Of a stretch of 64,000 bases of DNA, positions 4,864-33,762 are shown one piece after another. The DNA is from Clostridium thermobutyricum (GTDB lineage Bacteria > Bacillota > Clostridia > Ch29): assembly GCA_016842005.1 (NCBI GenBank), contig JAENYD010000001.1, forward strand, positions 102,754-166,753, given 5' to 3'. Position 1 is the first letter of the stretch, and every line of letters starts with the position of its first letter. Under the pieces are notes generated by a model, which was not told the origin of the DNA, did no database searches, and worked only from the letters and a program-made list of their open reading frames with translations. The translations under genes were made by a program, and so were the position numbers.

Positions 4864-5224
4864 TTATTAAAAAGCTGTCTGTCAATGGGTCAACAACTGT
4901 GCCCGGAATATAATATAATTCTATAAGATATCAGAAAACCCTTTTTACTATCATTTGCCAGGTTCAGAGACCTTCATCCTGTGCCCGGAGTAAGATAATA
5001 GGGAGTAGATGGTGGATGCATATGAGGTTGTAAAACCTTAAAGGATAGAAAAAAACTCGTGAGGGAAAAGTATCTGAACCTCCGCTCTCTTATACACGAT
5101 AACTCGCCTTGAGGCGCAAGGTTTTTGAGGAAAACCGGCAACAATAATCTTATTCTTTACTGGCGGTGAAGCATACTGCTGAAAATCCAACTGGCTTCCA
5201 TAGAAAAAGCCGGGGTTAGTCCCT

Positions 5225-5363
5225 GGCTTAGAATTTTGTCCGATGTTACCGCCGTCAATACTTCTGTCCTTTTATGCGGGAGATAGTCGGCGCTACGCCC
5301 CCGGATAACGGATTTCAAGCTTCAGATGGGGTTCAAACCCCGCCTGTAGCTTGAAATCCTGTC
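5225..5363 (-). repeat. Copy B of the structured intergenic repeat family, inverted relative to copy A
   Basis: The reverse complement of 5225-5363 aligns with 1057-1190. Shared blocks: ggtttgaaccccatctgaagctt, gaaatccgttatccgggggcgtagcgccg, ctatctcccgc, gacggcggt, catcgga. Confidence 0.6.
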
Positions 5364-6049
5364 TATAGCTTCAGTTCCCCTATATTCCCCAACCCTTCAT
5401 ATGAAATAAGGTTCAATTGAGCTTCTGTTGATTTGATATGCTCTTCTATAGCCTTCACAGATTTTGATGCGTCCTTTTGTCTCAATGCTTCAAGAATATC
5501 ATGATGCTGATCGGGAGTAAAATACTGTTTTTCCAGCATAGGGTCATTGAGTATATAAAACACATCGTATATATCAGTCTTGATAATAATGTCCTTTACG
5601 TAATTATACAGACATTTATTACCGGTGATTTTAGCTATTGCTTTGTGAAAATCTGCTCCAAGTGTATAGGCCTCTGCACGATTTTTTACCATATACGCGT
5701 TTTTTTCTTTTTCCAGTATCTGTTCCAGTCTTTCTATGTCCTCATGGGATGCCCTCTCAGAAGCAATTCTGACAGACATTTTCTCTATTTCAACTCTTAC
5801 CGCAAAAGCATCTTTAATCTCATCATAGGTTTTTTTGGTTACAAATGCACCTTTGTTTGGAATGATTGCCAGCAAGCCATCTCTTTCTAAAAGTTTAAGA
5901 GCCGTGTGCACCGGGGTCCTGCTAACATTAAGAATATCTGCTATCTCACTTTCCACCAGCTTATAGTTGGGAGGGAACTTATTTAACATAATAGCTTTCT
6001 TGAGTTTTTCATATACAATATCATCCAGTGTTTTTTTATCTTTTTTCAA
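5363..6049 (-). CDS. GntR-family transcriptional regulator (FadR/FCD C-terminal domain)
   Basis: N-terminal wHTH (ESEIADILNVSRTPVHTALKLLERDGLL) followed by an all-helical FCD-like domain. Confidence 0.8.
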   Translation of the reverse strand: MKKDKKTLDDIVYEKLKKAIMLNKFPPNYKLVESEIADILNVSRTPVHTALKLLERDGLLAIIPNKGAFVTKKTYDEIKDAFAVRVEIEKMSVRIASERASHEDIERLEQILEKEKNAYMVKNRAEAYTLGADFHKAIAKITGNKCLYNYVKDIIIKTDIYDVFYILNDPMLEKQYFTPDQHHDILEALRQKDASKSVKAIEEHIKSTEAQLNLISYEGLGNIGELKL

Positions 6050-6180
6050 TGCACCTACCTCCTAGGGTCTGCTTAAGAATCATTGTTTATTGGAAACACT
6101 GTTGTCTTTCAATAGATAATCGGCTGAATATATTATATATAAAGATACAGTTTATGCAAAGTATTCTGTTTCTAAAAATA

Positions 6181-18584: not shown

Positions 18585-20765
18585 ATGAGTAAAGCGTTAG
18601 TACTGGCCGAAAAGCCGTCTGTAGGAAGAGACCTGGCCAGGGTACTGAATTGCAGCAATAAAGGGAACGGCTACCTGGAGGGAAAAGAGTATATAGTTAC
18701 CTGGGCCCTGGGGCATCTGGTTACACTGGCTGAGCCCGAGGTCTACGATAAAAAATACAAATCATGGCGGATAGAAGACCTGCCCATGCTGCCTGAGCAT
18801 TTGAATCTTGTTGTAATAAAACAGAGCAGCCGGCAGTTTGCCTCCGTAAAGCAGCAGATGCACAGAAAGGATGTAAATCAGATTATTATTGCCACCGATG
18901 CGGGTCGGGAGGGTGAGCTTGTGGCCCGGTGGATAATAGAAAAGGCCGGCGTAAGGAAGCCGGTCAAACGTCTGTGGATTTCCTCGGTGACCGATAAGGC
19001 TATCAGGGAAGGCTTCAGCAGATTAAAGGATGGCAAGGAATATGAAAACCTTTATGCCTCTGCCGTTGCCCGGGCTGAAGCGGACTGGCTTGTGGGCATA
19101 AATGCCACACGGGCTTTGACCTGCAAGTATAACGCCCGGCTTTCCTGCGGGAGGGTTCAGACCCCCACCCTTGCCATCATCGCCGGGAAAGAGGAAGAGA
19201 TCCGGAACTTTACACCCAGGCCCTATTACGGTATTGTTGCTGCAGCCGACAGACTGAAGCTGACATGGCAGGACGGCCGGACCAAAAGCTTCAGGACCTT
19301 TGACAGGGATAAAAGAAATAAGGTGTTTATGCAGATACAGGACAAGGATGCTGAAGTTACAGAAGTAAATAAAGTCTACAGGAAAAAATTTGCTCCCCTG
19401 CTTTATGACCTGACAGAGCTTCAACGGGATGCCAACAGGATTTACGGCTATTCGGCAAAGGAAACCCTTTCAATCATGCAAAGACTGTATGAACATCATA
19501 AGGTGTTAACCTATCCCAGAACCGATTCCAGGTATATTTCAACAGATATCGTAGGTACCTTAGATGATAGGATTAAGGCCTGCGGGGTTGGCCCTTACTC
19601 CAAAACCGCCCGTAAAGCCCTTAAATATCCCATAACGAAGAAAATGCCTTTCGTTGATAACAGTAAGGTTTCGGACCATCACGCCATCATCCCCACCGAG
19701 CAGGCGGTTTATCTGGATGAATTGAGCGACAGGGAAAAAAAGATATATGACCTGGTTGTCAAACGCTTCCTGGCTGTCCTTTATCCTCCCTTCGAGTACC
19801 AGCAGACAACAATAAGGGCGACAATTGGAGGGGAACTTTTCATTGCAAAGGGGAAGGTTGTTATGGCTCAGGGCTGGAAGGAGGTCTATGATAACGGCTA
19901 CGACGATGAAGAGCAGGACCAGGATATTTCTGAGCAGATACTGCCGGATGTGAACAAAGGTGATGCCATAAAGATACTCGGCCTCACCCAGACTGAAGGA
20001 GAGACCAAACCACCGGTGCCCTTCAATGAAGGAAGTCTCCTTTCAGCCATGGAAAATCCGGCAAAATATATGGCCGGTGAGAGCAAGGCCCTGCTAAAGA
20101 CCATTGGAGAAACCGGGGGACTTGGAACGGTAGCCACAAGGGCGGATATCATAGACAAACTGTTTAACAGTTTTCTGATTGAAAAAAAAGGGAAAGACAT
20201 CTTTATTACTTCCAAGGGCAGACAGCTTCTGGAGCTGGTTCCCGAAGGCCTTAAGTCTCCGGCCCTGACTGCGGAGTGGGAACAAAAACTGAGCCATATT
20301 TCAAAAGGTTCCCTCAGTAAAAAAGCCTTCATCAGTGAAATGAGGGATTATGCTAAAGAGGTGGTTGAGAAAATAAAAAACAGGGAAGCGGTGTTCCGGC
20401 ATGACAATATTACAAGGACCAGGTGCCCGGATTGCGGCAAGTACATGCTTGAGGTCAACGGAAAGAAGGGCAGAATGCTTGTGTGCCAGGACAGGGAATG
20501 CGGGCACAGGATAGGGCTTGCCAGAAAAACCAATGCAAGGTGCCCGGAATGCCATAAAAAACTCGAACTGCGGGGAGAAGGAGACGGACAGATATTTGTC
20601 TGCCTGTGCGGGTACAGGGAAAAACTCTCTTCCTTTAAGGAAAGAAAAGAAAGGGAAAGCAGCAGGGTTTCAAAGAAAGAGGTGACCAAATACCTTAAAA
20701 AGCAACAGAAAGATAAGCCAATCAATTCCGCCCTTGCAGACGCCCTTTCCAAACTCGACCTTTAA
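18585..20765 (+). CDS. topB: DNA topoisomerase III (type IA) with two C-terminal C4 zinc ribbons
   Basis: TOPRIM N-terminus (MSKALVLAEKPSVGRDLARVL...GHLV), the catalytic region, and C-terminal CPDCGKY...CQDRECGH and CPECHKK...CLCGY motifs. Confidence 0.9.
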   Translation: MSKALVLAEKPSVGRDLARVLNCSNKGNGYLEGKEYIVTWALGHLVTLAEPEVYDKKYKSWRIEDLPMLPEHLNLVVIKQSSRQFASVKQQMHRKDVNQIIIATDAGREGELVARWIIEKAGVRKPVKRLWISSVTDKAIREGFSRLKDGKEYENLYASAVARAEADWLVGINATRALTCKYNARLSCGRVQTPTLAIIAGKEEEIRNFTPRPYYGIVAAADRLKLTWQDGRTKSFRTFDRDKRNKVFMQIQDKDAEVTEVNKVYRKKFAPLLYDLTELQRDANRIYGYSAKETLSIMQRLYEHHKVLTYPRTDSRYISTDIVGTLDDRIKACGVGPYSKTARKALKYPITKKMPFVDNSKVSDHHAIIPTEQAVYLDELSDREKKIYDLVVKRFLAVLYPPFEYQQTTIRATIGGELFIAKGKVVMAQGWKEVYDNGYDDEEQDQDISEQILPDVNKGDAIKILGLTQTEGETKPPVPFNEGSLLSAMENPAKYMAGESKALLKTIGETGGLGTVATRADIIDKLFNSFLIEKKGKDIFITSKGRQLLELVPEGLKSPALTAEWEQKLSHISKGSLSKKAFISEMRDYAKEVVEKIKNREAVFRHDNITRTRCPDCGKYMLEVNGKKGRMLVCQDRECGHRIGLARKTNARCPECHKKLELRGEGDGQIFVCLCGYREKLSSFKERKERESSRVSKKEVTKYLKKQQKDKPINSALADALSKLDL

Positions 20766-20772
20766 ATGTCAA

Positions 20773-20819
20773 GGGGACGGTTCTTCTGACACAAAAAAAT
20801 TGTCAGGAGAACCGTCCCC
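20773..20819 (+). repeat. 19-bp stem hairpin (GGGGACGGTTCTTCTGACA / TGTCAGGAGAACCGTCCCC) with no U tract, followed by CCCCTGACA direct repeats and repeat copy C
   Basis: One G-U wobble in the 19-bp stem. The downstream sequence CCCCTGACAgtgCCCCTGACAtgGGGGG runs into the 20840-20877 repeat core. Confidence 0.4.
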
Positions 20820-20839
20820 CTGACAGTGCCCCTGACATG

Positions 20840-20877
20840 GGGGGTCAAAACCCCGCCTGAAGCCAAGAATCCTGTTT
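20840..20877 (-). repeat. Copy C (core only) of the structured intergenic repeat family
   Basis: ggggtcaaaaccccgcctgaagccaagaatcctgttt is ~90% identical to the reverse complement of 1057-1092. It has the same orientation as copy B. Confidence 0.55.
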
Positions 20878-20948
20878 GTACTTTTCCCAAATTCAATGTA
20901 TTTTTATGGTATAATTATACTTAATATTATAAGGACAGGTGTATTACA

Positions 20949-23900
20949 ATGTTTATAGCTGATTTTCACATACATTCAAAATATTCAAGGGCCACCAGCA
21001 GGGAATGTGTACCTGAAGTGCTTGACATGTGGGCCAGGCGTAAAGGGATTGACGTTATAGGAACGGGTGATTTCACCCATCCGGCATGGCGGGAAGAATT
21101 AAAGGAGAAGCTTGTGCCTTCCGGAGAAGGTCTCTATGTCCTTAAGGATGATTTCAGTATAGGGGACAAGGTCTCAGAAGCACGTTCGAAGCCTCGTTTC
21201 ATGGTTTCCGGGGAAATAAGCTCAATATACAAGAAAAACGGAAGGGTAAGAAAGGTCCACAACCTGATACTTCTGCCCGGCCTGGAGTATGCTGAATCAA
21301 TATCCCGGCGGCTTGAGGCCGTAGGCAATTTGCATTCCGACGGCAGGCCGATATTGGGCCTGGACAGCAGGGACCTGCTTGAGATAGTCCTTGATATGTG
21401 CCCGGATGCCATATTCATCCCTGCCCATATATGGACCCCGCATTTCTCCCTGTATGGTGCATATTCCGGCTTTGACAACATCAGGGAATGTTTCGAAGAC
21501 CTTACCGGTTGTATATATGCCCTTGAAACGGGCCTTTCCTCTGATCCTCCAATGAACTGGCGTCTTTCCGCACTGGATGAGTTCACACTGGTTTCCAACT
21601 CTGATGCCCATTCCCCGGCAAAACTGGGAAGGGAGGCAAACATTTTTGATACCGGGCTTTCTTATACGTGTATATTGAATGCTTTGAAAAACCGCAGGAC
21701 AAAAGAATTTTACGGTACAATAGAGTTTTTCCCGGAGGAAGGAAAATACCACTACGACGGTCACAGGGCATGTAAGGTATGCTGGAAGCCTTCGGATACA
21801 AAGGCTGCACGAGGCGTATGCCCTGTATGCGGCGGCAGGATTACAGTGGGAGTGCTTCACCGGGTTGAAGACCTTGCAGACAGGGAAGAGGGGTTTGTCC
21901 CTCCGGCAGCAAGGCATTTTGAAAGCCTTGTTCCGCTTGATGAGATAATAGCCTCCTCAATGGGTTTTACTACTGCCAGCGCGAAGGTAAAGGGAAAGTA
22001 CGATGACCTGATACGGAGCCTCGGACCGGAGCTGTTTATACTCCGTGAGGCCCCGCTGAAGGATATTGAACTGGCGGCAGGACCATGCATAGCTGAAGGC
22101 ATCCGCCGGCTGCGATGCGGCAAGGTTGAAATACAACCCGGATTTGATGGAGAATACGGCAGAATTAAAGTAATAGACAAAAGCGAAATAGATATGCTTT
22201 CAGGTCAGCTGAGCTTTATTGCCCCTGAAATTATTGAAGATAAAAAGAACTTCACCGGTGAAGCCCAACCGGCACCGGTTTTAGCAGATAACTGTCCCTC
22301 AGGCGGCAGCGAGGACACTGTTAAAACTGCTCCCCCGGACATCCCCTACAGGTTGAACCGGGAGCAGTGGGAGGCTGTTTCGTCCTCCAGCCCGGCCATT
22401 GCGGTAATCGCAGGCCCCGGAACCGGAAAAACAAAAACACTGGTGTCCCGTATCGCATACCTTGTTGAAAAATGTGATGTACATCCCTCCCGGATAACCG
22501 CCGTTACCTTTACCAATAAAGCCGCAAACGAGATGCGCACCCGTCTGGAAAAACACTTTGGAGATAAGAGGACGGCAGATGCAATGGCCATAGGAACCTT
22601 CCACTCCATATGTCTTCAGATTTTATCCGGATGGAAGGGCAAGAATAACATAACCGTTATTGATGAGTATAACGCCCTTTCAATAGTCGAGGAAATATTA
22701 AAGGCCATGGAATTGAAAATTTCTCCGCGGGATGCGATGAGAGAAATATCACTGATTAAAAGCGGTGCATCGCCGGGAGAAAATAAAGAAATATCGATTC
22801 AAAAGGGGACATTCCGCAGCAAGGAATACCCGCATCGCAGCGGTGTGTCCCCTGACCTTATATATGATTTATACTGTTCACAGCTTGAACGTTACGGTGT
22901 AATGGACTATGACGATATTCTCCTCGAAGTGCTCAAAAGGTTTGAAGCTACAAATACAGAGGATATACCGGGCAGGAACCTGGATAACTCTTTCTCATAT
23001 CTGCTGGTGGATGAATTCCAGGATATAAATGGAATTCAGTACCGCTTGATAAAGGAATGGGGCAGAAAAAGCAAAAGTATTTTCATCATAGGTGACCCTG
23101 ACCAGTCCATCTATGGTTTCAGGGGCTCGGATTTCCGCTATTTTGAAAGGTTCAAAGAGGATTTTCCCGACACCCAGCATGTCCGGCTAACACAGAATTA
23201 CCGGTCCACACCTGAAATAATTGTTTGTGCCAAATCGGTAATCTCAAAGGAAACTGCAGGGGCGCTCACCCGTTCCCTGGATGCAACAAGGAAAAGCGGT
23301 GCCAAGGTACGCCTTGTAGAGACCCGTGATGAATTTTCAGAGGCTATTTTTGTTGCAAAGGAGATAAACCGTATGGTCGGCGGCGTTGACATGCTTGATG
23401 CCCATGCGCTGCCGGCATCCGGCGGAAAAAGGCCCGTGACAGGACACCCGAGAGGCTTTTCGGATATTGCCGTGCTATACCGTACCAACCGCCAGGCAGA
23501 AATTCTGGAGCACTGTCTCCGAAAAGAGGGCATCCAGTATGTGGTGGTGGGGCGGGACCAGTTCCTTTCGGATAAACCGGTCCGTGAAGCCATCGCCTTC
23601 TTCAAACTTTTGCTCAACCCCGGAGATATTGCTTCACTACGGGTATGCCTTAATGCAGAAGGCCTATATCCGGCAGACCTGAGCCAAAAGGTCCTGGAAA
23701 TCTATGCTGGGGCTGAGAAAAGCGTAGCTTCCCTTGCAAAAATCATAGAAGGCATCCAACTGCCACCGCATATCCCGGACAAACCCCTGCATTTGGCAGA
23801 GGTGTTAAGGAAATATAAAGGCACCATCAATAAAGAAAAACCGTATAAGATTATAGATGCATGGATCAACGACAACAACCTGTCAGGCATCAGGTCCATG

Positions 23901-24317
23901 GAACTGCTTTTAAACACGGCGGTTATGCATGATCAGATGTCTTCCTTCATTCAAACCCTTGTACTGGGACGTGAAAGTGATGTTGTCCGCAGCGGCAGCA
24001 AGGTTTATTCTCCGGATGCGGTATCACTGATGACCATACACGGAGCAAAAGGTCTTGAATTCCCCGCAGTGTTCATATGCGGCGTAGACGACGGCATGAT
24101 CCCTCTGAGGAACAGCAGGCATGCCCTTAATATCGGAGAGGAGAGACGGCTTTTCTATGTGGGGATGACAAGGGCACAGGATGAACTTATACTTCTGACT
24201 TCCCGTACCCCGTCGCCTTTTATTGCCAGCATACCTCAAGAGCATCTTGTAACAGAAAGGGCCTTTATCCAAAAGCCGTCGCCCCAGTGTGAGCAAATCA
24301 GCCTTTTTGACATATGA
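20949..24317 (+). CDS. Fusion protein: N-terminal EndoQ-like PHP-domain nuclease (TIGR00375 type, with Zn-ribbon) plus C-terminal UvrD/PcrA-family SF1 helicase
   Basis: N-terminus MFIADFHIHSKYSRATS...GIDVIGTGDFTHPAW (PHP). Zn ribbon CKVCW...CPVCGG. From aa ~470 the helicase motifs: Walker A GPGTGKT, DEFQD, QNYRST, TIHGAKGLEF, YVGMTRAQ. Confidence 0.8.
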   Translation: MFIADFHIHSKYSRATSRECVPEVLDMWARRKGIDVIGTGDFTHPAWREELKEKLVPSGEGLYVLKDDFSIGDKVSEARSKPRFMVSGEISSIYKKNGRVRKVHNLILLPGLEYAESISRRLEAVGNLHSDGRPILGLDSRDLLEIVLDMCPDAIFIPAHIWTPHFSLYGAYSGFDNIRECFEDLTGCIYALETGLSSDPPMNWRLSALDEFTLVSNSDAHSPAKLGREANIFDTGLSYTCILNALKNRRTKEFYGTIEFFPEEGKYHYDGHRACKVCWKPSDTKAARGVCPVCGGRITVGVLHRVEDLADREEGFVPPAARHFESLVPLDEIIASSMGFTTASAKVKGKYDDLIRSLGPELFILREAPLKDIELAAGPCIAEGIRRLRCGKVEIQPGFDGEYGRIKVIDKSEIDMLSGQLSFIAPEIIEDKKNFTGEAQPAPVLADNCPSGGSEDTVKTAPPDIPYRLNREQWEAVSSSSPAIAVIAGPGTGKTKTLVSRIAYLVEKCDVHPSRITAVTFTNKAANEMRTRLEKHFGDKRTADAMAIGTFHSICLQILSGWKGKNNITVIDEYNALSIVEEILKAMELKISPRDAMREISLIKSGASPGENKEISIQKGTFRSKEYPHRSGVSPDLIYDLYCSQLERYGVMDYDDILLEVLKRFEATNTEDIPGRNLDNSFSYLLVDEFQDINGIQYRLIKEWGRKSKSIFIIGDPDQSIYGFRGSDFRYFERFKEDFPDTQHVRLTQNYRSTPEIIVCAKSVISKETAGALTRSLDATRKSGAKVRLVETRDEFSEAIFVAKEINRMVGGVDMLDAHALPASGGKRPVTGHPRGFSDIAVLYRTNRQAEILEHCLRKEGIQYVVVGRDQFLSDKPVREAIAFFKLLLNPGDIASLRVCLNAEGLYPADLSQKVLEIYAGAEKSVASLAKIIEGIQLPPHIPDKPLHLAEVLRKYKGTINKEKPYKIIDAWINDNNLSGIRSMELLLNTAVMHDQMSSFIQTLVLGRESDVVRSGSKVYSPDAVSLMTIHGAKGLEFPAVFICGVDDGMIPLRNSRHALNIGEERRLFYVGMTRAQDELILLTSRTPSPFIASIPQEHLVTERAFIQKPSPQCEQISLFDI

Positions 24318-24332
24318 CAAAAATAACCGTTT

Positions 24333-25088
24333 CTACTGTTTGCCTACTGTCTGGAGCACTTCCTTGAGTTTCTCGCCTGTGGTTTTTTTTCTGCATTTAT
24401 CGCATAGTAATCCGTCCATGTCTATTCCTTTCTTATTCTTTATATACTCATACTGCTCCCGGGTCATGAAGTGATCTCCACACCGGGTGCATTTGAGGAG
24501 TTCAAAGGTCTTGTTCCATATCCTTCTTTTTCCCTGATGTTCTTCGATTTCTATGGCACCGGTAGGACATACATAGGCGCATGCCCCGCATCCGATACAT
24601 TCTGGAGGGGTTTCCTCAAAGGGTGTCGATACTTTTTTTATTGTCCCTCTGTTTACCATGGAAATGGCATGGGCGCCCACTTCATCGCATGCCCTTACAC
24701 ACAGGCCGCACAGGATGCATTTTTCCTCATTATCAATCTTAAATCTGGTTTCAGGAGGGATATTATATTCTTCGGATAACCGCTTAATAAAGTCACTGCC
24801 GGGGGCCCTGGCAGAGAGTAACCTCATAATGGTCCTCCGCATTTCCTTTATTCTTTCCGAGCAGGTGATGACCTCTATCTCTTTTGTAACAGGGTATGAG
24901 CAGGAAGTAACAATTTTCCGCCTTGAACCGTCGACAATCTCAACAATGCACATCCTGCAGTTTCCCTGCCCCGGCAGGGCTTCAGAGTGGCATAATGCAG
25001 GTATGTGTATACCGTTTCTTTCAGCTACGTTCAGAATGTATTCACCGTGCTCCGCACTGCACTCTTTACCGTCTATAATAATATTCAT
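24333..25088 (-). CDS. NuoG-N-terminal-like Fe-S protein ([2Fe-2S] ferredoxin domain plus two [4Fe-4S] motifs): putative electron-transfer subunit
   Basis: MNIIIDGKECSAE...IPALCH...CRMC (2Fe-2S); CILCGLCVRAC and CIGCGACAYVCP (4Fe-4S). Its start overlaps the stop of the NuoF-like gene. Confidence 0.7.
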   Translation of the reverse strand: MNIIIDGKECSAEHGEYILNVAERNGIHIPALCHSEALPGQGNCRMCIVEIVDGSRRKIVTSCSYPVTKEIEVITCSERIKEMRRTIMRLLSARAPGSDFIKRLSEEYNIPPETRFKIDNEEKCILCGLCVRACDEVGAHAISMVNRGTIKKVSTPFEETPPECIGCGACAYVCPTGAIEIEEHQGKRRIWNKTFELLKCTRCGDHFMTREQYEYIKNKKGIDMDGLLCDKCRKKTTGEKLKEVLQTVGKQ

Positions 25089-26935
25089 TCCGCCACCCCT
25101 CCCTTTATCTTAACAGCATTGAACCTGCAGACGTCCCTGCATGCTCCGCATTTAATACATTTTGAAGCATCTATCGTGAAATTCGACTTCAGTTGCCCTG
25201 AAATAGCCCCGGACGGGCAATTTTTCCGGCACAGACCGCAGCCTTTGCAGGCATCACCGTCGATGTAGTAACTGGTCAGCTCTTTACACGTACCTGCCGG
25301 ACAGCGTTTGTTGACTATATGCTCAAGGTATTCTTCCCGGAAGTATTTTATGGTGGTAATGACCGGGTTGGGGGCAGTCTTCCCGAGCCCGCACAGTGAT
25401 GCCTCTTTTATTGTCCCGGACAATTCAAGCAGCAAATCAATGTCTTCTTCCCGTCCCTTTCCCGCACAAATACCCTCTACCAACTCCAGCATCCTCTTTA
25501 TCCCTTCCCGGCAGGGAACACACTTGCCGCAGGATTCTCCGGCCAGGAAGTTCAGATAATATCTGGCCACCTCAACCATACAGGTATCTTCATCCATTAC
25601 TATCATTCCGCCTGACCCCATCATTGAACCGGCTTCATCCAGGGAATCGAAATCCACCTTCAGGTCCACCAGACTTTCGGGTACACAACCGCCTGAAGGA
25701 CCGCCGGTCTGAACTGCCTTAAACTTCTTGTTCCCCGGTATCCCTCCTCCGATATCAAAGATTATCTCTCTGAGGGTTATTCCCATGGGGACTTCTATCA
25801 ACCCGGTATTGTTTACTTTCCCCACGAGGGAGAATACTTTTGTACCTTTGCTTTTCCCGGTACCAATCGAGCTAAACCACCCGGCCCCTTTGATTATTAT
25901 CTCGGGGACGTTTGCCCAGGTTTCAACGTTGTTAAGCACCGTAGGCTGTCCCCACAGGCCCCTTTCGGTTGAATGAATATATTTTGTCCTGGGTTCTCCC
26001 ACATTGCCCTCAATAGAAGACATGAGCGCCGTGGATTCGCCGCATACAAAGGCCCCCCCGCCTCTCACGATCTGGATATCGAAATTGAACTCTCTACCAA
26101 GGATATTGCTTCCCAGAAATCTTCTCTCTTTAGCTTGTTCTATTGCCTTCGACATGTTTTCTATTGCCAGGGAATATTCGTCCCTGATATATATATATCC
26201 CTGTTCGGCCCGGATAGCATATGCACAGATGAGCATACCTTCAATAACACTGTGCGGGTCACCTTCCATTATGCTTCTGTCCATAAATGCACCCGGATCC
26301 CCTTCATCACCGTTGCAGACAACGTACTTGGGAAAACTGTTTACTTTATTGCACTGTTCCCACTTGCTGCCTGTGGGATATCCGCCTCCGCCTCTGCCTC
26401 TCAAACCGGATTTTTTTATCTCTGATATGACATCACCAGGGGATAAATTAAACAATGCCTTTTTCAATGCCTGGTAACCGCCGCGCTCGATATAGTCTTC
26501 AATGTTTGCCGGGTCCACCTCTCCTATATTCCGCAGGGCGATCTTTTTCTGTCTGCCGTAGAATTGGCTGTCTTTATGGGATTTTACCCTTTGCCCTGTG
26601 GAGGTATCCAGATATAGCAGCCTGTCAATTATTTCATCGTTTTTTATGGTTCTGTCTATTATTTCATCCACATCTGACACTTTTACATTACAATAAAAGA
26701 TGTCATCAGGATAAATTTTTACTATGGGCCCTTTTTCGCACAGTCCGTTACACCCTGTGGCCTTGACTACAGGACGGATTTTTGCTTTTATACCCGATGC
26801 CCCGGCTTTTCGTTTAAGCTCCTTATATATCTCAAGACTGTTATTAGCCAGACAGCCTGTACCACAGCAAACAAGAACCGTTTTTTTCTTCCTGCTATTG
26901 AATATCTTCACTGTTCCGGCCTCCAAACCCGTCAA
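25085..26935 (-). CDS. NuoF-like NADH-binding flavoprotein with an N-terminal thioredoxin-like [2Fe-2S] domain and a C-terminal 2x[4Fe-4S] ferredoxin domain (HydB/BfuB-type)
   Basis: GRGGGGYPTGSKWE (FMN/NADH site); ESCGKCVPCREG (N3 cluster); C-terminal CKGCGLCRKNCP and CIKCGACRDVC; N-terminal CCGTGC...C..C. Confidence 0.85.
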   Translation of the reverse strand: MTGLEAGTVKIFNSRKKKTVLVCCGTGCLANNSLEIYKELKRKAGASGIKAKIRPVVKATGCNGLCEKGPIVKIYPDDIFYCNVKVSDVDEIIDRTIKNDEIIDRLLYLDTSTGQRVKSHKDSQFYGRQKKIALRNIGEVDPANIEDYIERGGYQALKKALFNLSPGDVISEIKKSGLRGRGGGGYPTGSKWEQCNKVNSFPKYVVCNGDEGDPGAFMDRSIMEGDPHSVIEGMLICAYAIRAEQGYIYIRDEYSLAIENMSKAIEQAKERRFLGSNILGREFNFDIQIVRGGGAFVCGESTALMSSIEGNVGEPRTKYIHSTERGLWGQPTVLNNVETWANVPEIIIKGAGWFSSIGTGKSKGTKVFSLVGKVNNTGLIEVPMGITLREIIFDIGGGIPGNKKFKAVQTGGPSGGCVPESLVDLKVDFDSLDEAGSMMGSGGMIVMDEDTCMVEVARYYLNFLAGESCGKCVPCREGIKRMLELVEGICAGKGREEDIDLLLELSGTIKEASLCGLGKTAPNPVITTIKYFREEYLEHIVNKRCPAGTCKELTSYYIDGDACKGCGLCRKNCPSGAISGQLKSNFTIDASKCIKCGACRDVCRFNAVKIKGGVAE

Positions 26936-27392
26936 TAATTTTTTTTACCATTTTAGGAGTAACTTTCCCAAAGTATTTGCCATCAACAACCATAACAGGC
27001 GCTATTGCGCAGGAACCCAGGCAGTTTACCGTTTCAAGGGAAAACAGGCCATCTTCTGTAGTTTCCCCCGGTGAGATATTGAGCAGCTTTTGAATTTCAT
27101 CAATTATCAGGCCTGAGCCCCTTATATGGCATGCTGTTCCGTCACATACCTTTATTACATACCTGCCTTTGGGTTTCAGGCTTAATGCCTTGTAGAATGT
27201 AGCCATGCTGTACAGCTTGCTCATAGGAATATCAAGATATTCATGTATGACTGTCAGCGATTCCCTCGGCAGGTAGTTATATTGCTTCTGTATATCCTGG
27301 AGTATTGCAAGCAAGAACCTCTGTTCTTCAGGATATCTTTTCAGTATTGAGCGGGTACAAGAAATTATTTCCTGTGTCTTTTCAGAGGACAT
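26895..27392 (-). CDS. NuoE-like thioredoxin-fold [2Fe-2S] protein (HydC/BfuC-type)
   Basis: CDGTACHIRG...CLGSCAIAPVMVVDGKY is the canonical NuoE/HoxE motif set. Confidence 0.85.
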   Translation of the reverse strand: MSSEKTQEIISCTRSILKRYPEEQRFLLAILQDIQKQYNYLPRESLTVIHEYLDIPMSKLYSMATFYKALSLKPKGRYVIKVCDGTACHIRGSGLIIDEIQKLLNISPGETTEDGLFSLETVNCLGSCAIAPVMVVDGKYFGKVTPKMVKKIIDGFGGRNSEDIQ

Positions 27393-27429: not shown

Positions 27430-27708
27430 TTAACCTCCTGCTACAACGGGAAAGATACTTATCTCGTCATCCGGCCTTAAAGGAGTGTCCAGAAATTCCA
27501 TATGAACGATATTCCTGCCGTTTACCAGAATAATTATCTCATCACTTAATTGACGGTCACCGGTAAATATTAATTCCCGGAATTTTTTACCGTATTTTAT
27601 GCACAGTTCATCCAGAAGCTCCTGAACAGTAGTACACCGGTTATATTCAATTTCCCTGGAACCTGTGTAGTCCCTTATATATGCAAAAAACTTTATTTTC
27701 ATGACCAT
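27430..27708 (-). CDS. MoaD/ThiS-family small sulfur-carrier-like protein (C-terminal GG)
   Basis: ~92 aa from MVMKIKFFAYIRDYTG..., ending ...ISIFPVVAGG. The ORF-track start at 27762 is probably too far upstream. Confidence 0.6.
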   Translation of the reverse strand: MVMKIKFFAYIRDYTGSREIEYNRCTTVQELLDELCIKYGKKFRELIFTGDRQLSDEIIILVNGRNIVHMEFLDTPLRPDDEISIFPVVAGG

Positions 27709-27800
27709 TAACCCCGATAAAGAAATTTTACCCGTGAGTTGACCGCACGAATATGCCGCCAACTCACAGGTAAGTATTCCATATTAATATTTTTTGTCCT

Positions 27801-29606
27801 TTACTTGAGCGCAAGCTCCTTCAACTTATTATCCTCAGGCACACCTTCACTGTTCCATCCTCTTACCTCATAGTACTCCTTGAGCATTACATCCAGTTCA
27901 ACTACTTTGCCTTTGGCGGGACCCGATGGCAGTGGTTCATTCAGCAGTCTGGGCGGCAGGGTATCATCCGCTTTGGTAAAGCCTGCTTCCAGATTGAACA
28001 GCCTCTCCAGGTTCCATATACGCTCTCCCTTTTGAAGTATTTCTTCATCAGTACAGTCAATGCCCAGGGCTGTCCTCAGCATGGAAGAAATCTCGGGAAG
28101 TCCGAGACCAAAGGTTGTAAAAAGACATATCCCGGCAGAATCTATGACTGCAGTAAGGTCCTGGAAGGTTTTCAGCCAGGATGCCTTGTCGGTTGTTACC
28201 AGGGGATCAAGTTTCTCAGGAACACCCAGAATTTCAGGTGATGTCAGGTATCCTCTTACATGGCAGGCCCCGCGGTTGGATGTCGCATATTCAAGACCCA
28301 TGCCCTGTACGCCCCTTGCATCGTATGCAGGCATCTCCTGTTTCTTGACCGTCATGGACAGTTCAGGGTGCCCGTAACCGGATGCCATCCTGTAAGACCC
28401 TTCCGCCAGTTTGTCTCCAAAGCCTTCCCTCAGACCGGTCATTTTTGTCAGCTCGACAATGGCGTCCGCATCCCCGAATCTCAGTTTCCTGCCCACTTCT
28501 TCTTCCGGGAGAATGCCTTTTTCACTCATTTCCATGGCGCATGCTATTGTAGAACCCATGGTAATCGGGTCAAGTCCCAGCTCATTACAGATGAAATTTG
28601 CCTTGCAGATCGCAGCCAGGTCTTTAACTCCGCAGTCCGCACCATAGGCCCAGCCTGCTTCATATTCAGGTCCTTCCCCAAAACCCTTGAATTTGCCTTC
28701 AGGAACCCTGGTAATCCTTCCGCAGCCTATGGAACATCCGAAACAGCCTTTGTTTCTTACAAGAAATTTTTCAGTCAGCGATTCTCCTCCTGTTTCGTCC
28801 GCATCTTCAAAATAACCGCCATCTCGCCAGTTCCTGGTCGGCAGGGCTCCCGATTGATTCAATATATTCACGAGTACTTCAGTTCCATAGGTAGGAAGCC
28901 CCGTACCCGCTACAGGGTCTTCTTTAAGTTTCCTTCTTGCATCAATGCATTTTTCGAGGAATGCGTCAGGCTCAGCGACCTGTACAGACCTGGACCCTCT
29001 TACAGCTACGGCCTTCAGATTTTTTGACCCCATTACCGCACCAAGGCCCGAACGCCCGGCGGCCCTGTGCTTATCGTTCATTACAGTGGCAAAGAGTACC
29101 AGTTTCTCACCTGCCGGTCCTATGCATGTAACTCTGGCATCCTCCGCCGTTTCTTCCAGCAGCTGGTCTGTGGTTTCAAATACGTTTTTGCCCCACAGGT
29201 GCCTGGCATCCCTCAGTTCTACATGGTCATCGTTTATCCAGAGATAAACAGGTTTTTTAGACTTGCCTTCAAAAATAATACCGTCGTAGCCGGCAAACTT
29301 CAGTTCGGGTCCGAAGTGTCCACCCGAGTTTGAAGCACCTATTGTTCCTGTAAGGGGGGCCTTTGCAATAACTTCATATCTCCCCGCACTTGCCGCAAAT
29401 GTGCCGGTAAGCGGACCCGTCATGAATATGAGTTTGTTGTCAGGGCTGAGGGGGTCAACCCTGGGGTCCACCTCATCCATCATTATTTTTGTACCCAGAC
29501 CTCTTCCTCCTATATATGCCCTGGCATCTTCCATGTTCAAGGCCTCTTTTTTAACAGTGCCTTCGGTCAGGTTTACACGGAGTAAAGTACCGACAAAACC
29601 GAACAT
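27801..29606 (-). CDS. aor: Tungsten-containing aldehyde:ferredoxin oxidoreductase (AOR family)
   Basis: N-terminal [46 protein letters not shown] is the AOR family consensus. 601 aa, full length. Confidence 0.9.
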
Positions 29607-30109
29607 TATTCACTCACCTCCCCGAACAAATCCTTGAACTTCTCGGCAATTACCTTTTTCCTGCCTACTGTGTTGGGCGCAGCCTCTTTAAATTCAATGG
29701 CCCCTGACGGGCAGAACTCCGCACATTTTGGTTCTCCTTCACAAAGGTCACATTTGACGATTTTCTTTTCTGTCGGGCTGAATGTTATGTTGCCAAGGGG
29801 ACATGCACTTACGCACAGTTTGCAGCCTATGCACTTCTTCTCGTCAATCACAACCGTCCCATCTTCGGCCTTACGTATGGCTGAAGTGGGACATACCTTC
29901 ATACAGGAAGGCTCTTCGCACTGCATGCACATGACAGGTACGGATATAGCTGCTTCATCGTATGATAGAACGGATACCCTGGAGTTTTTGGGGTTAAATG
30001 CTTTGATTTTGCTGAAGGAACATATCAGCTCACATGTCCTGCAGCCAATACATTTTTCGGGCGACAGCATCAGTATTTTACCCACTTTGCTTCTGGTCAC
30101 CATTTTCAC
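29606..30109 (-). CDS. Poly-ferredoxin with four CxxCxxCxxxCP [4Fe-4S] motifs (AorA-like electron-transfer subunit)
   Basis: [37 protein letters not shown] and [15 protein letters not shown]. Its stop overlaps the AOR start. Confidence 0.8.
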
Positions 30110-30577
30110 CTGGCACCAGATTGCACCTCCTTTTATTTGATATATAACCTTGTGTGAGACTGCAGCCCTTGGCTATCTGCATTCTGCACACAAAAAAATT
30201 TCATTATTTAAGATGCAAGAGACAGGTTGCATATAAAAAGCAAAGGAACCTCATCCTTCAAGGTGCAAAACACCTCAATTATTGATTCGGCTCCTTTGCT
30301 CATGGCAGGCATAACGATTGCTCCTTACACCCTTTCGCCTCACAAATCCCGCAGGGATCGGCAAGGTCGGAGTCTCGCTCATTATCTCATTATAATTTAT
30401 GAAATCTTTTAAAAAATCAGACCTGCAAATCATCAGGGTATTAGGTATACAGGATCGGTTGGTTATTTGATATAATCAAATTAGATTTGATATTATTCTC
30501 CTGATTTTATTATAATAAACAGTGCCCATAAAAATCAAACTGTTTTGCTATTTTTTTAATCATTTTTTATAAAAAAA

Positions 30578-33105: not shown

Positions 33106-33146
33106 AGAATCAAAAAACCCTTGAAAATCAAGGGTTTTATTTTTGG
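33106..33146. terminator. Bidirectional rho-independent terminator at the 3' end of the tRNA operon
   Basis: AAAAAACCCTTGAaaatCAAGGGTTTTATTTTT. Confidence 0.65.
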
Positions 33147-33220
33147 TGCGCCCTGAGGGACTCGAACCCCCGACCAACTGATTCGAAGTCAGCGACTCTA
33201 TCCAACTGAGCTAAGGGCGC
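33145..33220 (-). tRNA. tRNA-Arg (anticodon TCG)
   Basis: Reverse complement GCGCCCTTAGCTCAGTTGGATAGAGTCGCTGACTTCGAATCAGTTGGTCGGGGGTTCGAGTCCCTCAGGGCGCACCA. Cloverleaf with encoded CCA. Confidence 0.85.
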
Positions 33221-33229
33221 ATATGAACC

Positions 33230-33303
33230 TGGAGCGGATGAAGGGAATCGAACCCTCGCGACTGGCTTGGAAGGCCAGGGCTCTACCACTGAGCTACACC
33301 CGC
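33230..33303 (-). tRNA. tRNA-Gly (anticodon TCC), copy 1
   Basis: Reverse complement GCGGGTGTAGCTCAGTGGTAGAGCCCTGGCCTTCCAAGCCAGTCGCGAGGGTTCGATTCCCTTCATCCGCTCCA. Confidence 0.85.
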
Positions 33304-33323
33304 ATCATGCCTGAAGAAAATAA

Positions 33324-33401
33324 TGGTGACCCATCCGCGACTCGAACGCGGGACACCCTGATTAAAAGTCAGGTGCTCTACCGACTGAGCTAATGGGCCA
33401 C
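33324..33401 (-). tRNA. tRNA-Lys (anticodon TTT)
   Basis: Reverse complement GTGGCCCATTAGCTCAGTCGGTAGAGCACCTGACTTTTAATCAGGGTGTCCCGCGTTCGAGTCGCGGATGGGTCACCA. Confidence 0.85.
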
Positions 33402-33405
33402 AAGA

Positions 33406-33482
33406 TGGCTGGGGCGGCAGGACTCGAACCTGCGGAATGCCAGAGTCAAAGTCTGGTGCCTTACCGGCTTGGCGACGCCCCA
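33406..33482 (-). tRNA. tRNA-Gln (anticodon TTG)
   Basis: Reverse complement TGGGGCGTCGCCAAGCCGGTAAGGCACCAGACTTTGACTCTGGCATTCCGCAGGTTCGAGTCCTGCCGCCCCAGCCA. It has the U1-A72 pair and the bacterial tRNA-Gln pattern. Confidence 0.85.
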
Positions 33483-33501
33483 AAGAAAACTGATTTGTAG
33501 A

Positions 33502-33579
33502 TGGGGTGGATAGTGGGAATCGAACCCACGACCTCCAGAGCCACAATCTGGCGCTCTAACCAACTGAGCTATACCCACC
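33502..33579 (-). tRNA. tRNA-His (anticodon GTG) with encoded G-1
   Basis: Reverse complement GGTGGGTATAGCTCAGTTGGTTAGAGCGCCAGATTGTGGCTCTGGAGGTCGTGGGTTCGATTCCCACTATCCACCCCA. The extra 5' G pairs with discriminator C73. Confidence 0.85.
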
Positions 33580-33603
33580 ATATTAACATTATATTAAGAT
33601 AAA

Positions 33604-33680
33604 TGGTGCGCCTGCAGGGACTCGAACCCCGGGCACACGGATTAGAAGTCCGTTGCTCTATCCACCTGAGCTACAGGCGC
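33604..33680 (-). tRNA. tRNA-Arg (anticodon TCT)
   Basis: Reverse complement GCGCCTGTAGCTCAGGTGGATAGAGCAACGGACTTCTAATCCGTGTGCCCGGGGTTCGAGTCCCTGCAGGCGCACCA. Confidence 0.85.
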
Positions 33681-33688
33681 ATGTAACA

Positions 33689-33762
33689 TGGAGCGGGTGA
33701 AGGGAATCGAACCCTCGCGACTGGCTTGGAAGGCCAGGGCTCTACCACTGAGCTACACCCGC
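33689..33762 (-). tRNA. tRNA-Gly (anticodon TCC), copy 2 (one substitution relative to copy 1)
   Basis: Reverse complement GCGGGTGTAGCTCAGTGGTAGAGCCCTGGCCTTCCAAGCCAGTCGCGAGGGTTCGATTCCCTTCACCCGCTCCA. Confidence 0.85.

Follow-up and report, generated by a model that had tools for sequence, protein, structure and literature searches.

A predicted endonuclease Q-helicase fusion protein with a candidate clamp-binding motif in Clostridium thermobutyricum, and its distribution among bacteria

The fusion gene and its two halves

The region analysed (the window) is a stretch of 64,000 nucleotides from Clostridium thermobutyricum (assembly GCA_016842005.1, contig JAENYD010000001.1, positions 102,754 to 166,753 of the forward strand). 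It carries at 20949..24317 a gene predicted to encode endonuclease Q (EndoQ), a PHP-type nuclease that cuts DNA at damaged bases, joined to a UvrD/PcrA-like helicase of superfamily 1A (SF1A). A first-pass annotation, made from the letters alone, had proposed this single-polypeptide fusion. The proposal was borne out by one uninterrupted 1122-residue open reading frame (ORF) and by retention of the fusion across phyla (described below), which rule out a frameshift between two separate genes. The public protein collection includes a sequence identical to the fusion protein. The gene and its parts were delimited as follows.

20949..24317, + strand: complete EndoQ-helicase fusion gene; ATG start, 1122 amino acids (aa), TGA stop and no internal stop in the ORF listing
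20949..21731 (aa 1-261), + strand: EndoQ catalytic PHP domain, from the alignment to the archaeal enzyme PfuEndoQ, the residue map and published residue roles (PMC5961232, PMC8307549)
21732..21932 (aa 262-328), + strand: EndoQ Zn-binding domain with the C4 ribbon C275/C278/C291/C294, from the alignment and residue map
21933..22223 (aa 329-425), + strand: EndoQ C-terminal helical (DNA-binding) domain, aligned to PfuEndoQ 304-384
22224..22349 (aa 426-467), + strand: poorly conserved linker between the halves, with no majority residue in the family consensus and a predicted local distance difference test score (pLDDT) <50 in the AlphaFold2 model
22350..24209 (aa 468-1087), + strand: PcrA/UvrD-like SF1A helicase core, from profile and structure-sequence matches and the motif map
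24210..24314 (aa 1088-1122), + strand: variable C-terminal tail in place of the PcrA C-terminal domain, delimited by the end of the PcrA alignment
24294..24308 (aa 1116-1120 of 1122), + strand: candidate beta-sliding-clamp-binding motif QISLF, from a consensus match

The N-terminal half aligned over its full length with EndoQ of known structure. Residues 4-410 matched residues 5-384 of the 400-residue chain of PfuEndoQ structure 5ZB8 (E=2.7e-45, 33 % identity), as they did structure 7K30, and the TIGR00375 profile was covered from position 2 to 374 of 374 (E=5e-55). The six metal ligands of the Pfu enzyme (H8, H10, E76, H84, H139 and D193; roles from PMC5961232) were all identical in the window protein (H7, H9, E89, H104, H160 and D219, plus H221). 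The lesion-recognition pocket of PfuEndoQ is formed by H139, T142, E167, L168, G169, L170, S171, N191 and D193 (PMC5961232, PMC8307549), and eight of these nine residues were identical, the sole change being L168 to T194. Pocket residues of the window protein thus identified were H160, T163, E193, G195, L196, S197 and N217, and the equivalents of H160, G195 and S197 are reported to exclude thymine and adenine sterically (PMC8307549). The SNSDAH motif was also kept.

The zinc ribbon followed the pattern C275-x2-C278 ... C291-P-V-C294-G-G, with the loop between the two pairs 3 residues shorter than in PfuEndoQ and all four cysteines invariant in the family consensus alignment. Beyond the ribbon, residues 329-410 of the query aligned at the sequence level to Pfu residues 304-384. 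For the database protein of identical sequence, the precomputed annotation includes the Pfam model PF27218 (MJ0043_C), which is also named for a 77 %-identical homologue from Pelotomaculum terephthalicicum. Among the generic Pfam PHP models none matched at E<=0.01 except for a weak match to PHP_C. Taken together, the end-to-end alignment, TIGR00375, the ligands, the pocket, the C4 ribbon and MJ0043_C assign the N-terminal domain to EndoQ proper, in line with the first-pass annotation, and not to a generic PHP phosphoesterase. One further substitution, W144 of the Pfu enzyme to His165, was considered as the loss of a wedge residue; this idea was dropped, since the structure of the EndoQ-DNA complex is reported to show the base flipped without a side-chain wedge, and the change is probably unimportant for that reason.

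The C-terminal half was matched best by Geobacillus PcrA (1PJR), with query residues 468-1087 aligned to PcrA 11-622 (E=9e-77) and UvrD and Rep ranking next. Pfam UvrD-helicase (E=1.4e-65) and UvrD_C (E=7e-49) were both detected. Every SF1A motif was present: I (GPGTGKT, 489-495), Ia (TFTNKAA, from 520), II (DEFQD, 688-692), III (GDPDQSIY, from 715), IV (QNYRST, 749-754), V (TIHGAKGLEF, 1029-1038) and VI (VGMTRAQ, 1071-1077). The first-pass annotation had called this half a complete SF1A helicase, and all the motifs that it quoted were located, including those of the EndoQ half (HIHSKYSRATS, 7-17; GTGDFTHPAW, 38-47; CKVCW, 275-279; CPVCGG, 291-296). The four-subdomain core (1A, 1B, 2A and 2B) was covered by a single continuous alignment to PcrA 11-622, in which the 2B region was weakly aligned. 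In the 1B region, at about 22770-22850 (aa ~608-632), the window protein has some 15 apparent extra residues (ENKEISIQKGTFRSKEYPHRSG) relative to the family consensus, which were modelled by AlphaFold2 with low confidence.

Both the EndoQ and the PcrA matches lie, by their scores, far beyond chance. The helicase half nevertheless represents a paralogous subfamily and not an ortholog of PcrA, UvrD or Rep, with scores below the equivalog cut-offs for Rep (331 vs 951 bits) and UvrD (310-325 vs 965-1144 bits) as well as for PcrA. In PcrA and UvrD, the C-terminal domain that follows motif VI is the RNA-polymerase-binding domain. The PcrA alignment stops at chain residue 622 of 724, and only 35 residues remain in the window protein beyond the helicase core, so that this domain is missing.

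The structure prediction suggested by the first-pass annotation was run, and the full-length AlphaFold2 model, built from a 33-sequence alignment, was unusably poor (mean pLDDT 63, predicted template modelling score (pTM) 0.44). It was dropped as a basis for fold searches and for the domain arrangement. Given the sequence matches to solved structures, the model was not needed for fold assignment.

Distribution, conservation and the C-terminal motif

One genome per species was scanned for relatives of the fusion, which were confirmed in at least 597 species-level genomes; 80 loci were retained for locus analyses, and residue invariance and pairwise identities were computed on a 71-member alignment. 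All 80 retained loci were fused, the match running from query residue ~1 to ~1120 where the contig permitted, and in 70 of them an uninterrupted ORF of at least 950 aa extended from the EndoQ N-terminus. They span Bacillota, Desulfobacterota, Gemmatimonadota, Chloroflexota, Spirochaetota, Rhodothermaceae and KSB1. Carriers from the gut belong to Lachnospiraceae, Oscillospiraceae and Christensenellaceae (Blautia, Dorea, Enterocloster, Anaerostipes and Hungatella), with Blautia, Dorea, Enterocloster and Anaerostipes counting among the abundant Clostridia of the human gut. Sulfate reducers are also represented, and other carriers include Moorellaceae, Syntrophomonadaceae, Dethiobacter, Gemmatimonadota, Caldilineaceae, Desulfobacteraceae, Desulfonema magnum, Rhodothermaceae, KSB1 and Treponema. 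In a protein search, homologues matching over the full length (about 1100 aa, 61-84 % identity) numbered at least 120; they came from Pelotomaculum, Peptococcaceae, Negativicutes (Sporomusa, Propionispora and Acetonema), Oxobacter, Halanaerobiales and others. The first-pass annotation had left open how widespread the fusion is and had proposed that its phylogenetic distribution be traced; the answer is that it is very widespread rather than unusual.

When only the EndoQ half was used in an exhaustive HMMER search of 1.84 billion cluster representatives, 3886 matches were obtained, 1111 of them at E<=1e-30. In the best 150 representatives, 128 reached the end of the helicase, 17 were partial (fragments) and 5 were without a helicase, such that helicase sequence was found in 145 of 150.

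The catalytic residues of both halves were strictly kept. The metal-ligand and pocket residues of EndoQ were invariant in the 71 members with the exception of N217 (65/71), and the helicase residues K494, T495, D688, E689, Q719, R752, G1035, E1037 and R1075 were likewise invariant. Mean identity was 63 % for the EndoQ half and 43 % for the helicase half; because the helicase half is the less conserved, EndoQ looks like the constrained core function. The pairwise identities of the two halves were correlated (r=0.90), a sign that the halves were joined once, long ago, and have evolved together since. The conservation pattern as a whole fits a single fusion in which purifying selection has maintained both activities. 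Identity to the window protein ranged from 78-84 % in Pelotomaculum-like relatives down to 38-43 % in other phyla.

These data leave very little room for the idea that the fusion is a product of a sequencing or assembly merge, or a decaying gene with one dead half. Such an origin is a general possibility for any fused ORF, and the linker at aa 426-467 (about 40-55 residues separate the halves) is indeed unconserved. The same continuous ORF was nonetheless found in 70 of 80 independent loci and 128 of 150 cluster representatives with the catalytic residues of both halves invariant, and the artefact explanation is effectively refuted.

A second conserved feature, which was absent from the account of the first-pass annotation, is added here. 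The window protein ends in ...EQISLFDI, and across the family the variable tail is followed by a C-terminus of the form Q-[LMVI]-x-[LF]-F, members from distant phyla finishing exactly in QLSLF, QLDLF, QLELF or QLNLF. A loose QxxLF-type pattern was present in the last 11 residues of 102 of 107 members and in 1.3 % of internal windows; a strict clamp pattern was present in 74 of 107 members against a background of 0.27 %. Of the 128 cluster representatives that reach the end of the helicase, 110 had the motif as well. The consensus beta-clamp-binding motif is QL[S/D]LF or QxxLF (PMC12309361).

Shiraishi et al. 2016 (PMC4858679) showed that PCNA stimulates archaeal EndoQ, which binds it via a C-terminal PCNA-interacting protein (PIP) box; QISLF would be the bacterial counterpart of this box. 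The presence of a clamp motif in long bacterial EndoQ homologs is not new, having been tabulated already in 2016: Supplementary Fig. S1 of PMC4858679 lists putative beta-clamp motifs for 44 bacterial EndoQ homologs. In that table 34 homologs end at residues 945-1244 and 10 are short (405-464 aa). The 34 long homologs are taken to be the fused form because of where they end, although the paper never mentions a helicase.

The clamp motif is also the starting point for a different view of the protein, as an accessory helicase associated with replication. In this case a PcrA/Rep-like motor would travel with the clamp or replisome, and EndoQ would deal with any uracil or hypoxanthine encountered in the template, either at the fork or behind it, making the protein a replication-coupled surveillance factor instead of a general nick-and-unwind excision enzyme. 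Consistent with it are the conservation of the C-terminal motif, the ranking of PcrA as the best helicase match, and the report that archaeal EndoQ is clamp-bound, is active on both single-stranded and double-stranded DNA and may be linked to the replication complex (PMC8307549). However, the helicase half falls far short of the equivalog cut-offs for PcrA, UvrD and Rep, has no C-terminal domain like that of PcrA and is the less conserved half (43 % vs 63 %), and the clamp motif does not separate repair from replication, since many repair proteins carry such motifs. A replication factor was therefore judged unlikely, though it deserves consideration.

Genomic context and mobile elements

The gene upstream of the fusion (18585-20765) was identified as topB, its product scoring 879 bits with TIGR01056, for which the cut-off is 516. 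The first-pass annotation had placed the fusion gene directly downstream of topB and a repeat-rich spacer; both are present, but the adjacency to topB proved incidental. When the proteins of the window neighbours were searched by tblastn against the 80 loci, topB gave one weak distant match, and the 77 %-identical P. terephthalicicum homologue has different neighbours and no topB. A functional linkage to topB was rejected on these grounds. De novo clustering of 681 flanking ORFs revealed no conserved partner gene, no cluster being present in more than 6 of the 80 loci.

The spacer between topB and the fusion gene contains the following elements.

20767..20825, no strand assigned: long hairpin directly after the topB stop, spacing topB from the fusion gene; near-perfect inverted repeat with 25-nucleotide arms, RNA fold of -54 kcal/mol, z=-8.3
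20907-20915, + strand: candidate extended -10 promoter element of the fusion gene, TGGTATAAT, read by eye
20937-20941, + strand: candidate ribosome-binding site AGGTG, 7 nucleotides ahead of the ATG, read by eye

The hairpin is followed by a partial third copy of its arm with CCTGACA (the whole element occupying 20767-20837), and the inverted repeat is unique within the window. Its probable role is to terminate topB transcription or to act as a bidirectional hairpin, which is said with reserve because the + strand has no T-run. The fusion gene would then be transcribed from its own promoter. The TGGTATAAT element was not flagged by the promoter consensus scan because that scan demands a -35 hexamer.

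At its 3′ end the fusion gene lies 16 nucleotides from a convergent gene, the last of an apparent redox operon on the - strand. The operon comprises 29606-30109, 27801-29606, 27430-27762, 26895-27392, 25085-26935 and 24333-25088, which encode, in turn, a protein resembling a 4Fe-4S ferredoxin, one resembling aldehyde:ferredoxin oxidoreductase, a small product of 110 aa, and NuoE-, NuoF- and HoxU-like subunits. A molybdenum/tungsten cofactor (Moco) riboswitch lies upstream of it at 30275-30384 on the - strand (39.4 bits, gathering score 36). Seven tRNA genes are clustered at 33144-33762 on the - strand (Arg-TCG, Gly-TCC, Lys-TTT, Gln-TTG, His-GTG, Arg-TCT and Gly-TCC). From about 1 kb to 53 kb, every large + strand gene of the window other than topB and the fusion gene (18585-24317) overlaps a longer ORF on the - strand, and the local sign change of the GC and AT skew at 18-24 kb simply follows this switch of coding strand.

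The occurrence of the gene on mobile elements bears on whether the protein might be a defence enzyme. A tblastn search of 50,697 phage records gave no match to the EndoQ half, and when 2.9 million viral contigs were scanned by pattern, no relative of the fusion was confirmed. Among 72,556 plasmid records tblastn gave one match to the EndoQ half, on a 733-kb Brevibacillus replicon with chromosome-like content. On this replicon of Brevibacillus laterosporus (NZ_CP011075.1), which is labelled a plasmid, a stand-alone EndoQ of the Bacilli type (393 aa, 4989-6170 of the extracted locus) lies directly downstream of a NUDIX gene in the order nudix-endoQ-spoIIM-fur-xerD-deoB.

An anti-phage or foreign-DNA defence function, in which phage DNA that contains uracil or is unusual in some other way would be cut and then degraded or unwound, would be analogous to the use of the UvrD-like GajB in Gabija. 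Indeed, the PADLOC models for GajB and for DRT helicases matched the protein (E down to 6e-75), and an antiviral role has been considered for bacterial EndoQ, the Bacillus enzyme being directed in that case against deoxyuridine-containing phage (PMC8307549). Those model matches were, however, confined to residues 468-1085, that is to the generic UvrD-fold helicase core, with the GajB match weaker than that to PcrA and the EndoQ half unmatched. Neither the window neighbours nor the 80 loci contained a GajA-like partner or a defence operon, and no partner gene or defence-island pattern recurred in the 80 loci. Identity falls with taxonomic distance and the two halves co-vary, the usual pattern for a housekeeping gene passed on mainly by vertical descent, and no phage, viral-contig or mobilisable-plasmid copies were found. 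With generic PADLOC matches, absence from phages and viral contigs and a single plasmid record, a defence system was rejected as the principal interpretation and is regarded as quite improbable.

Proposed role and comparison with known systems

The interpretation that is favoured, and that is held to be probable without being secure, is that of a chromosomal repair enzyme which is sufficient in itself: tethered to the clamp, it would nick DNA at uracil, hypoxanthine or abasic sites and unwind it from there. The incision-plus-unwinding machine imagined in the first-pass annotation is thus a reasonable functional idea. The EndoQ module would recognise a flipped-out uracil or hypoxanthine, or an abasic site, and cut the phosphodiester immediately 5′ of the lesion, leaving a 3′-OH and a lesion-bearing 5′-phosphate. 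The fused SF1A motor would then use ATP to unwind from the nick, peeling the lesion strand away and/or releasing the nuclease from its nicked product. The QxSLF tail would tether the enzyme to the beta sliding clamp, mirroring the link between the PIP box and PCNA in the Thermococcales, and could thereby connect incision with repair synthesis at the clamp or with DNA that has just been replicated. We infer each of these elements (the two activities, their coupling, the direction of unwinding, the strand engaged and clamp binding) from sequence.

This scheme is consistent with what is known of the enzyme elsewhere. Characterised EndoQ enzymes nick 5′ of uracil, hypoxanthine or abasic sites to give a 3′-OH and a 5′-phosphate, and archaeal EndoQ has been reported to stay on its nicked product (PMC5961232). 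The discoverers of EndoQ proposed a helicase-dependent branch after incision, in which the damaged segment would be 'removed by helicase activity'. The fusion would provide comparative-genomic support for such a helicase step after incision by EndoQ. A self-sufficient enzyme also fits the observation that no neighbouring gene is conserved.

Several points weigh against the repair scheme. A search of the EndoQ literature found no biochemical or genetic data on any fused member. The TIGR00375 score of 187.4 bits is under the curated cut-off of 326.6 bits, and the helicase half misses the equivalog cut-off for PcrA (380 vs 911 bits); the protein therefore belongs to a diverged subfamily, whose substrate range could differ. 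In the broad alignment the C278 column (21780-21782) is Cys in 53 of 71 members and otherwise R, S or V, probably because the variable CxxC loop is shifted in the alignment; the remaining three zinc-ribbon Cys columns are invariant across the same members. The full-length AlphaFold2 model (pLDDT 63, pTM 0.44) was too poor to give the domain arrangement, and the polarity of unwinding relative to the lesion is not readable from the sequence. Finally, bacteria that possess Pol I could finish repair from an EndoQ nick without a helicase, and thus the role of the motor may be other than strand removal.

If the nick-and-unwind enzyme does operate as proposed, the built-in SF1A motor would replace the strand displacement by polymerase plus Fen1 of archaea, or a helicase yet to be identified. 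EndoQ is seen in the literature as mainly archaeal, with an unsettled downstream pathway and with bacterial carriers in just 'limited groups', while the fused form with its clamp motif is common in bacteria. It is tentatively suggested that the helicase-fused, clamp-tethered form is the predominant EndoQ of bacteria and possibly the most widespread EndoQ architecture, performing an ATP-driven, glycosylase-independent 'nick-and-peel' excision of uracil, hypoxanthine and abasic sites; this, if true, would contradict the view of EndoQ as essentially archaeal. The fusion can be read as a natural 'Rosetta stone', which suggests that incision by EndoQ is followed by a helicase step and linked to the clamp, and its mesophilic bacterial carriers offer genetic systems for the EndoQ pathway. 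The value of the present analysis lies in this family-level hypothesis and not in the window locus itself.

Searches of the literature on EndoQ and TIGR00375 found no description of an EndoQ-helicase fusion. In databases the protein goes by 'UvrD-helicase domain-containing protein' (NCBI PGAP) or 'TIGR00375 family' (JGI), and the former label hides a predicted lesion-specific endonuclease in hundreds of genomes. The first-pass annotation had suspected that the gene might be annotated only generically as a UvrD-helicase. This holds for the usual NCBI name but not for MBA1335645.1, which is named explicitly as 'Endonuclease Q, cleaves 5' to damaged DNA bases / ATP-dependent DNA helicase UvrD/PcrA-like'. 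That entry is of the same family and 84 % identical to the window protein over its full length, and the window protein is accordingly a further member, with its nearest public relative at 84 % identity, of a very large and already catalogued family.

Compared with archaeal EndoQ (PfuEndoQ and TkoEndoQ; 5ZB8, 7K30), the three-domain body of the EndoQ half aligns end to end at 33 % identity and has in common the metal ligands, the uracil/hypoxanthine pocket, the C4 ribbon and a clamp-interaction motif at the extreme C-terminus. The archaeal proteins differ in their length of ~400-424 aa, in having no motor, and in a tail that is a PIP box for PCNA and not QxxLF; the window protein has Thr for L168 and His for W144. 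The stand-alone bacterial enzymes (Bacillus pumilus, B. subtilis and Brevibacillus laterosporus WP_031414379.1) have the same EndoQ fold, and the same lesion specificity has been reported for that of B. pumilus (PMC8307549), but they consist of ~390 aa without a helicase. The Brevibacillus protein is 28 % identical to the window EndoQ half (PfuEndoQ, 33 %), is encoded beside a NUDIX gene and has no QxxLF end. The long bacterial homologs of PMC4858679 (Suppl. Fig. S1), of ~945-1244 aa with QL[S/D]LF-like ends, belong to the same family and show no difference in kind.

With PcrA, UvrD and Rep (1PJR, 2IS1, 1UAA) the window protein has all helicase motifs in common, and its core should likewise include 1A, 1B, 2A and 2B; it differs in having no C-terminal domain, a 35-aa tail with the clamp motif and an attached N-terminal nuclease. 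AddA and RecB also combine an SF1A motor with a nuclease, and their models match the helicase region only of the window protein. Their nuclease is a C-terminal PD-(D/E)XK domain acting at DNA ends, whereas that of the fusion would be an N-terminal, lesion-specific PHP/EndoQ endonuclease. In nucleotide excision repair, incision by UvrC is followed by UvrD, and in mismatch repair UvrD follows a nick by MutH/MutL. This textbook comparison suggests the same logic for the fusion protein, with a lesion-directed nick, SF1A unwinding and enzyme turnover. The nuclease and helicase of those systems are separate and recruited by partners, whereas here they would act as one polypeptide with a clamp tether of its own.

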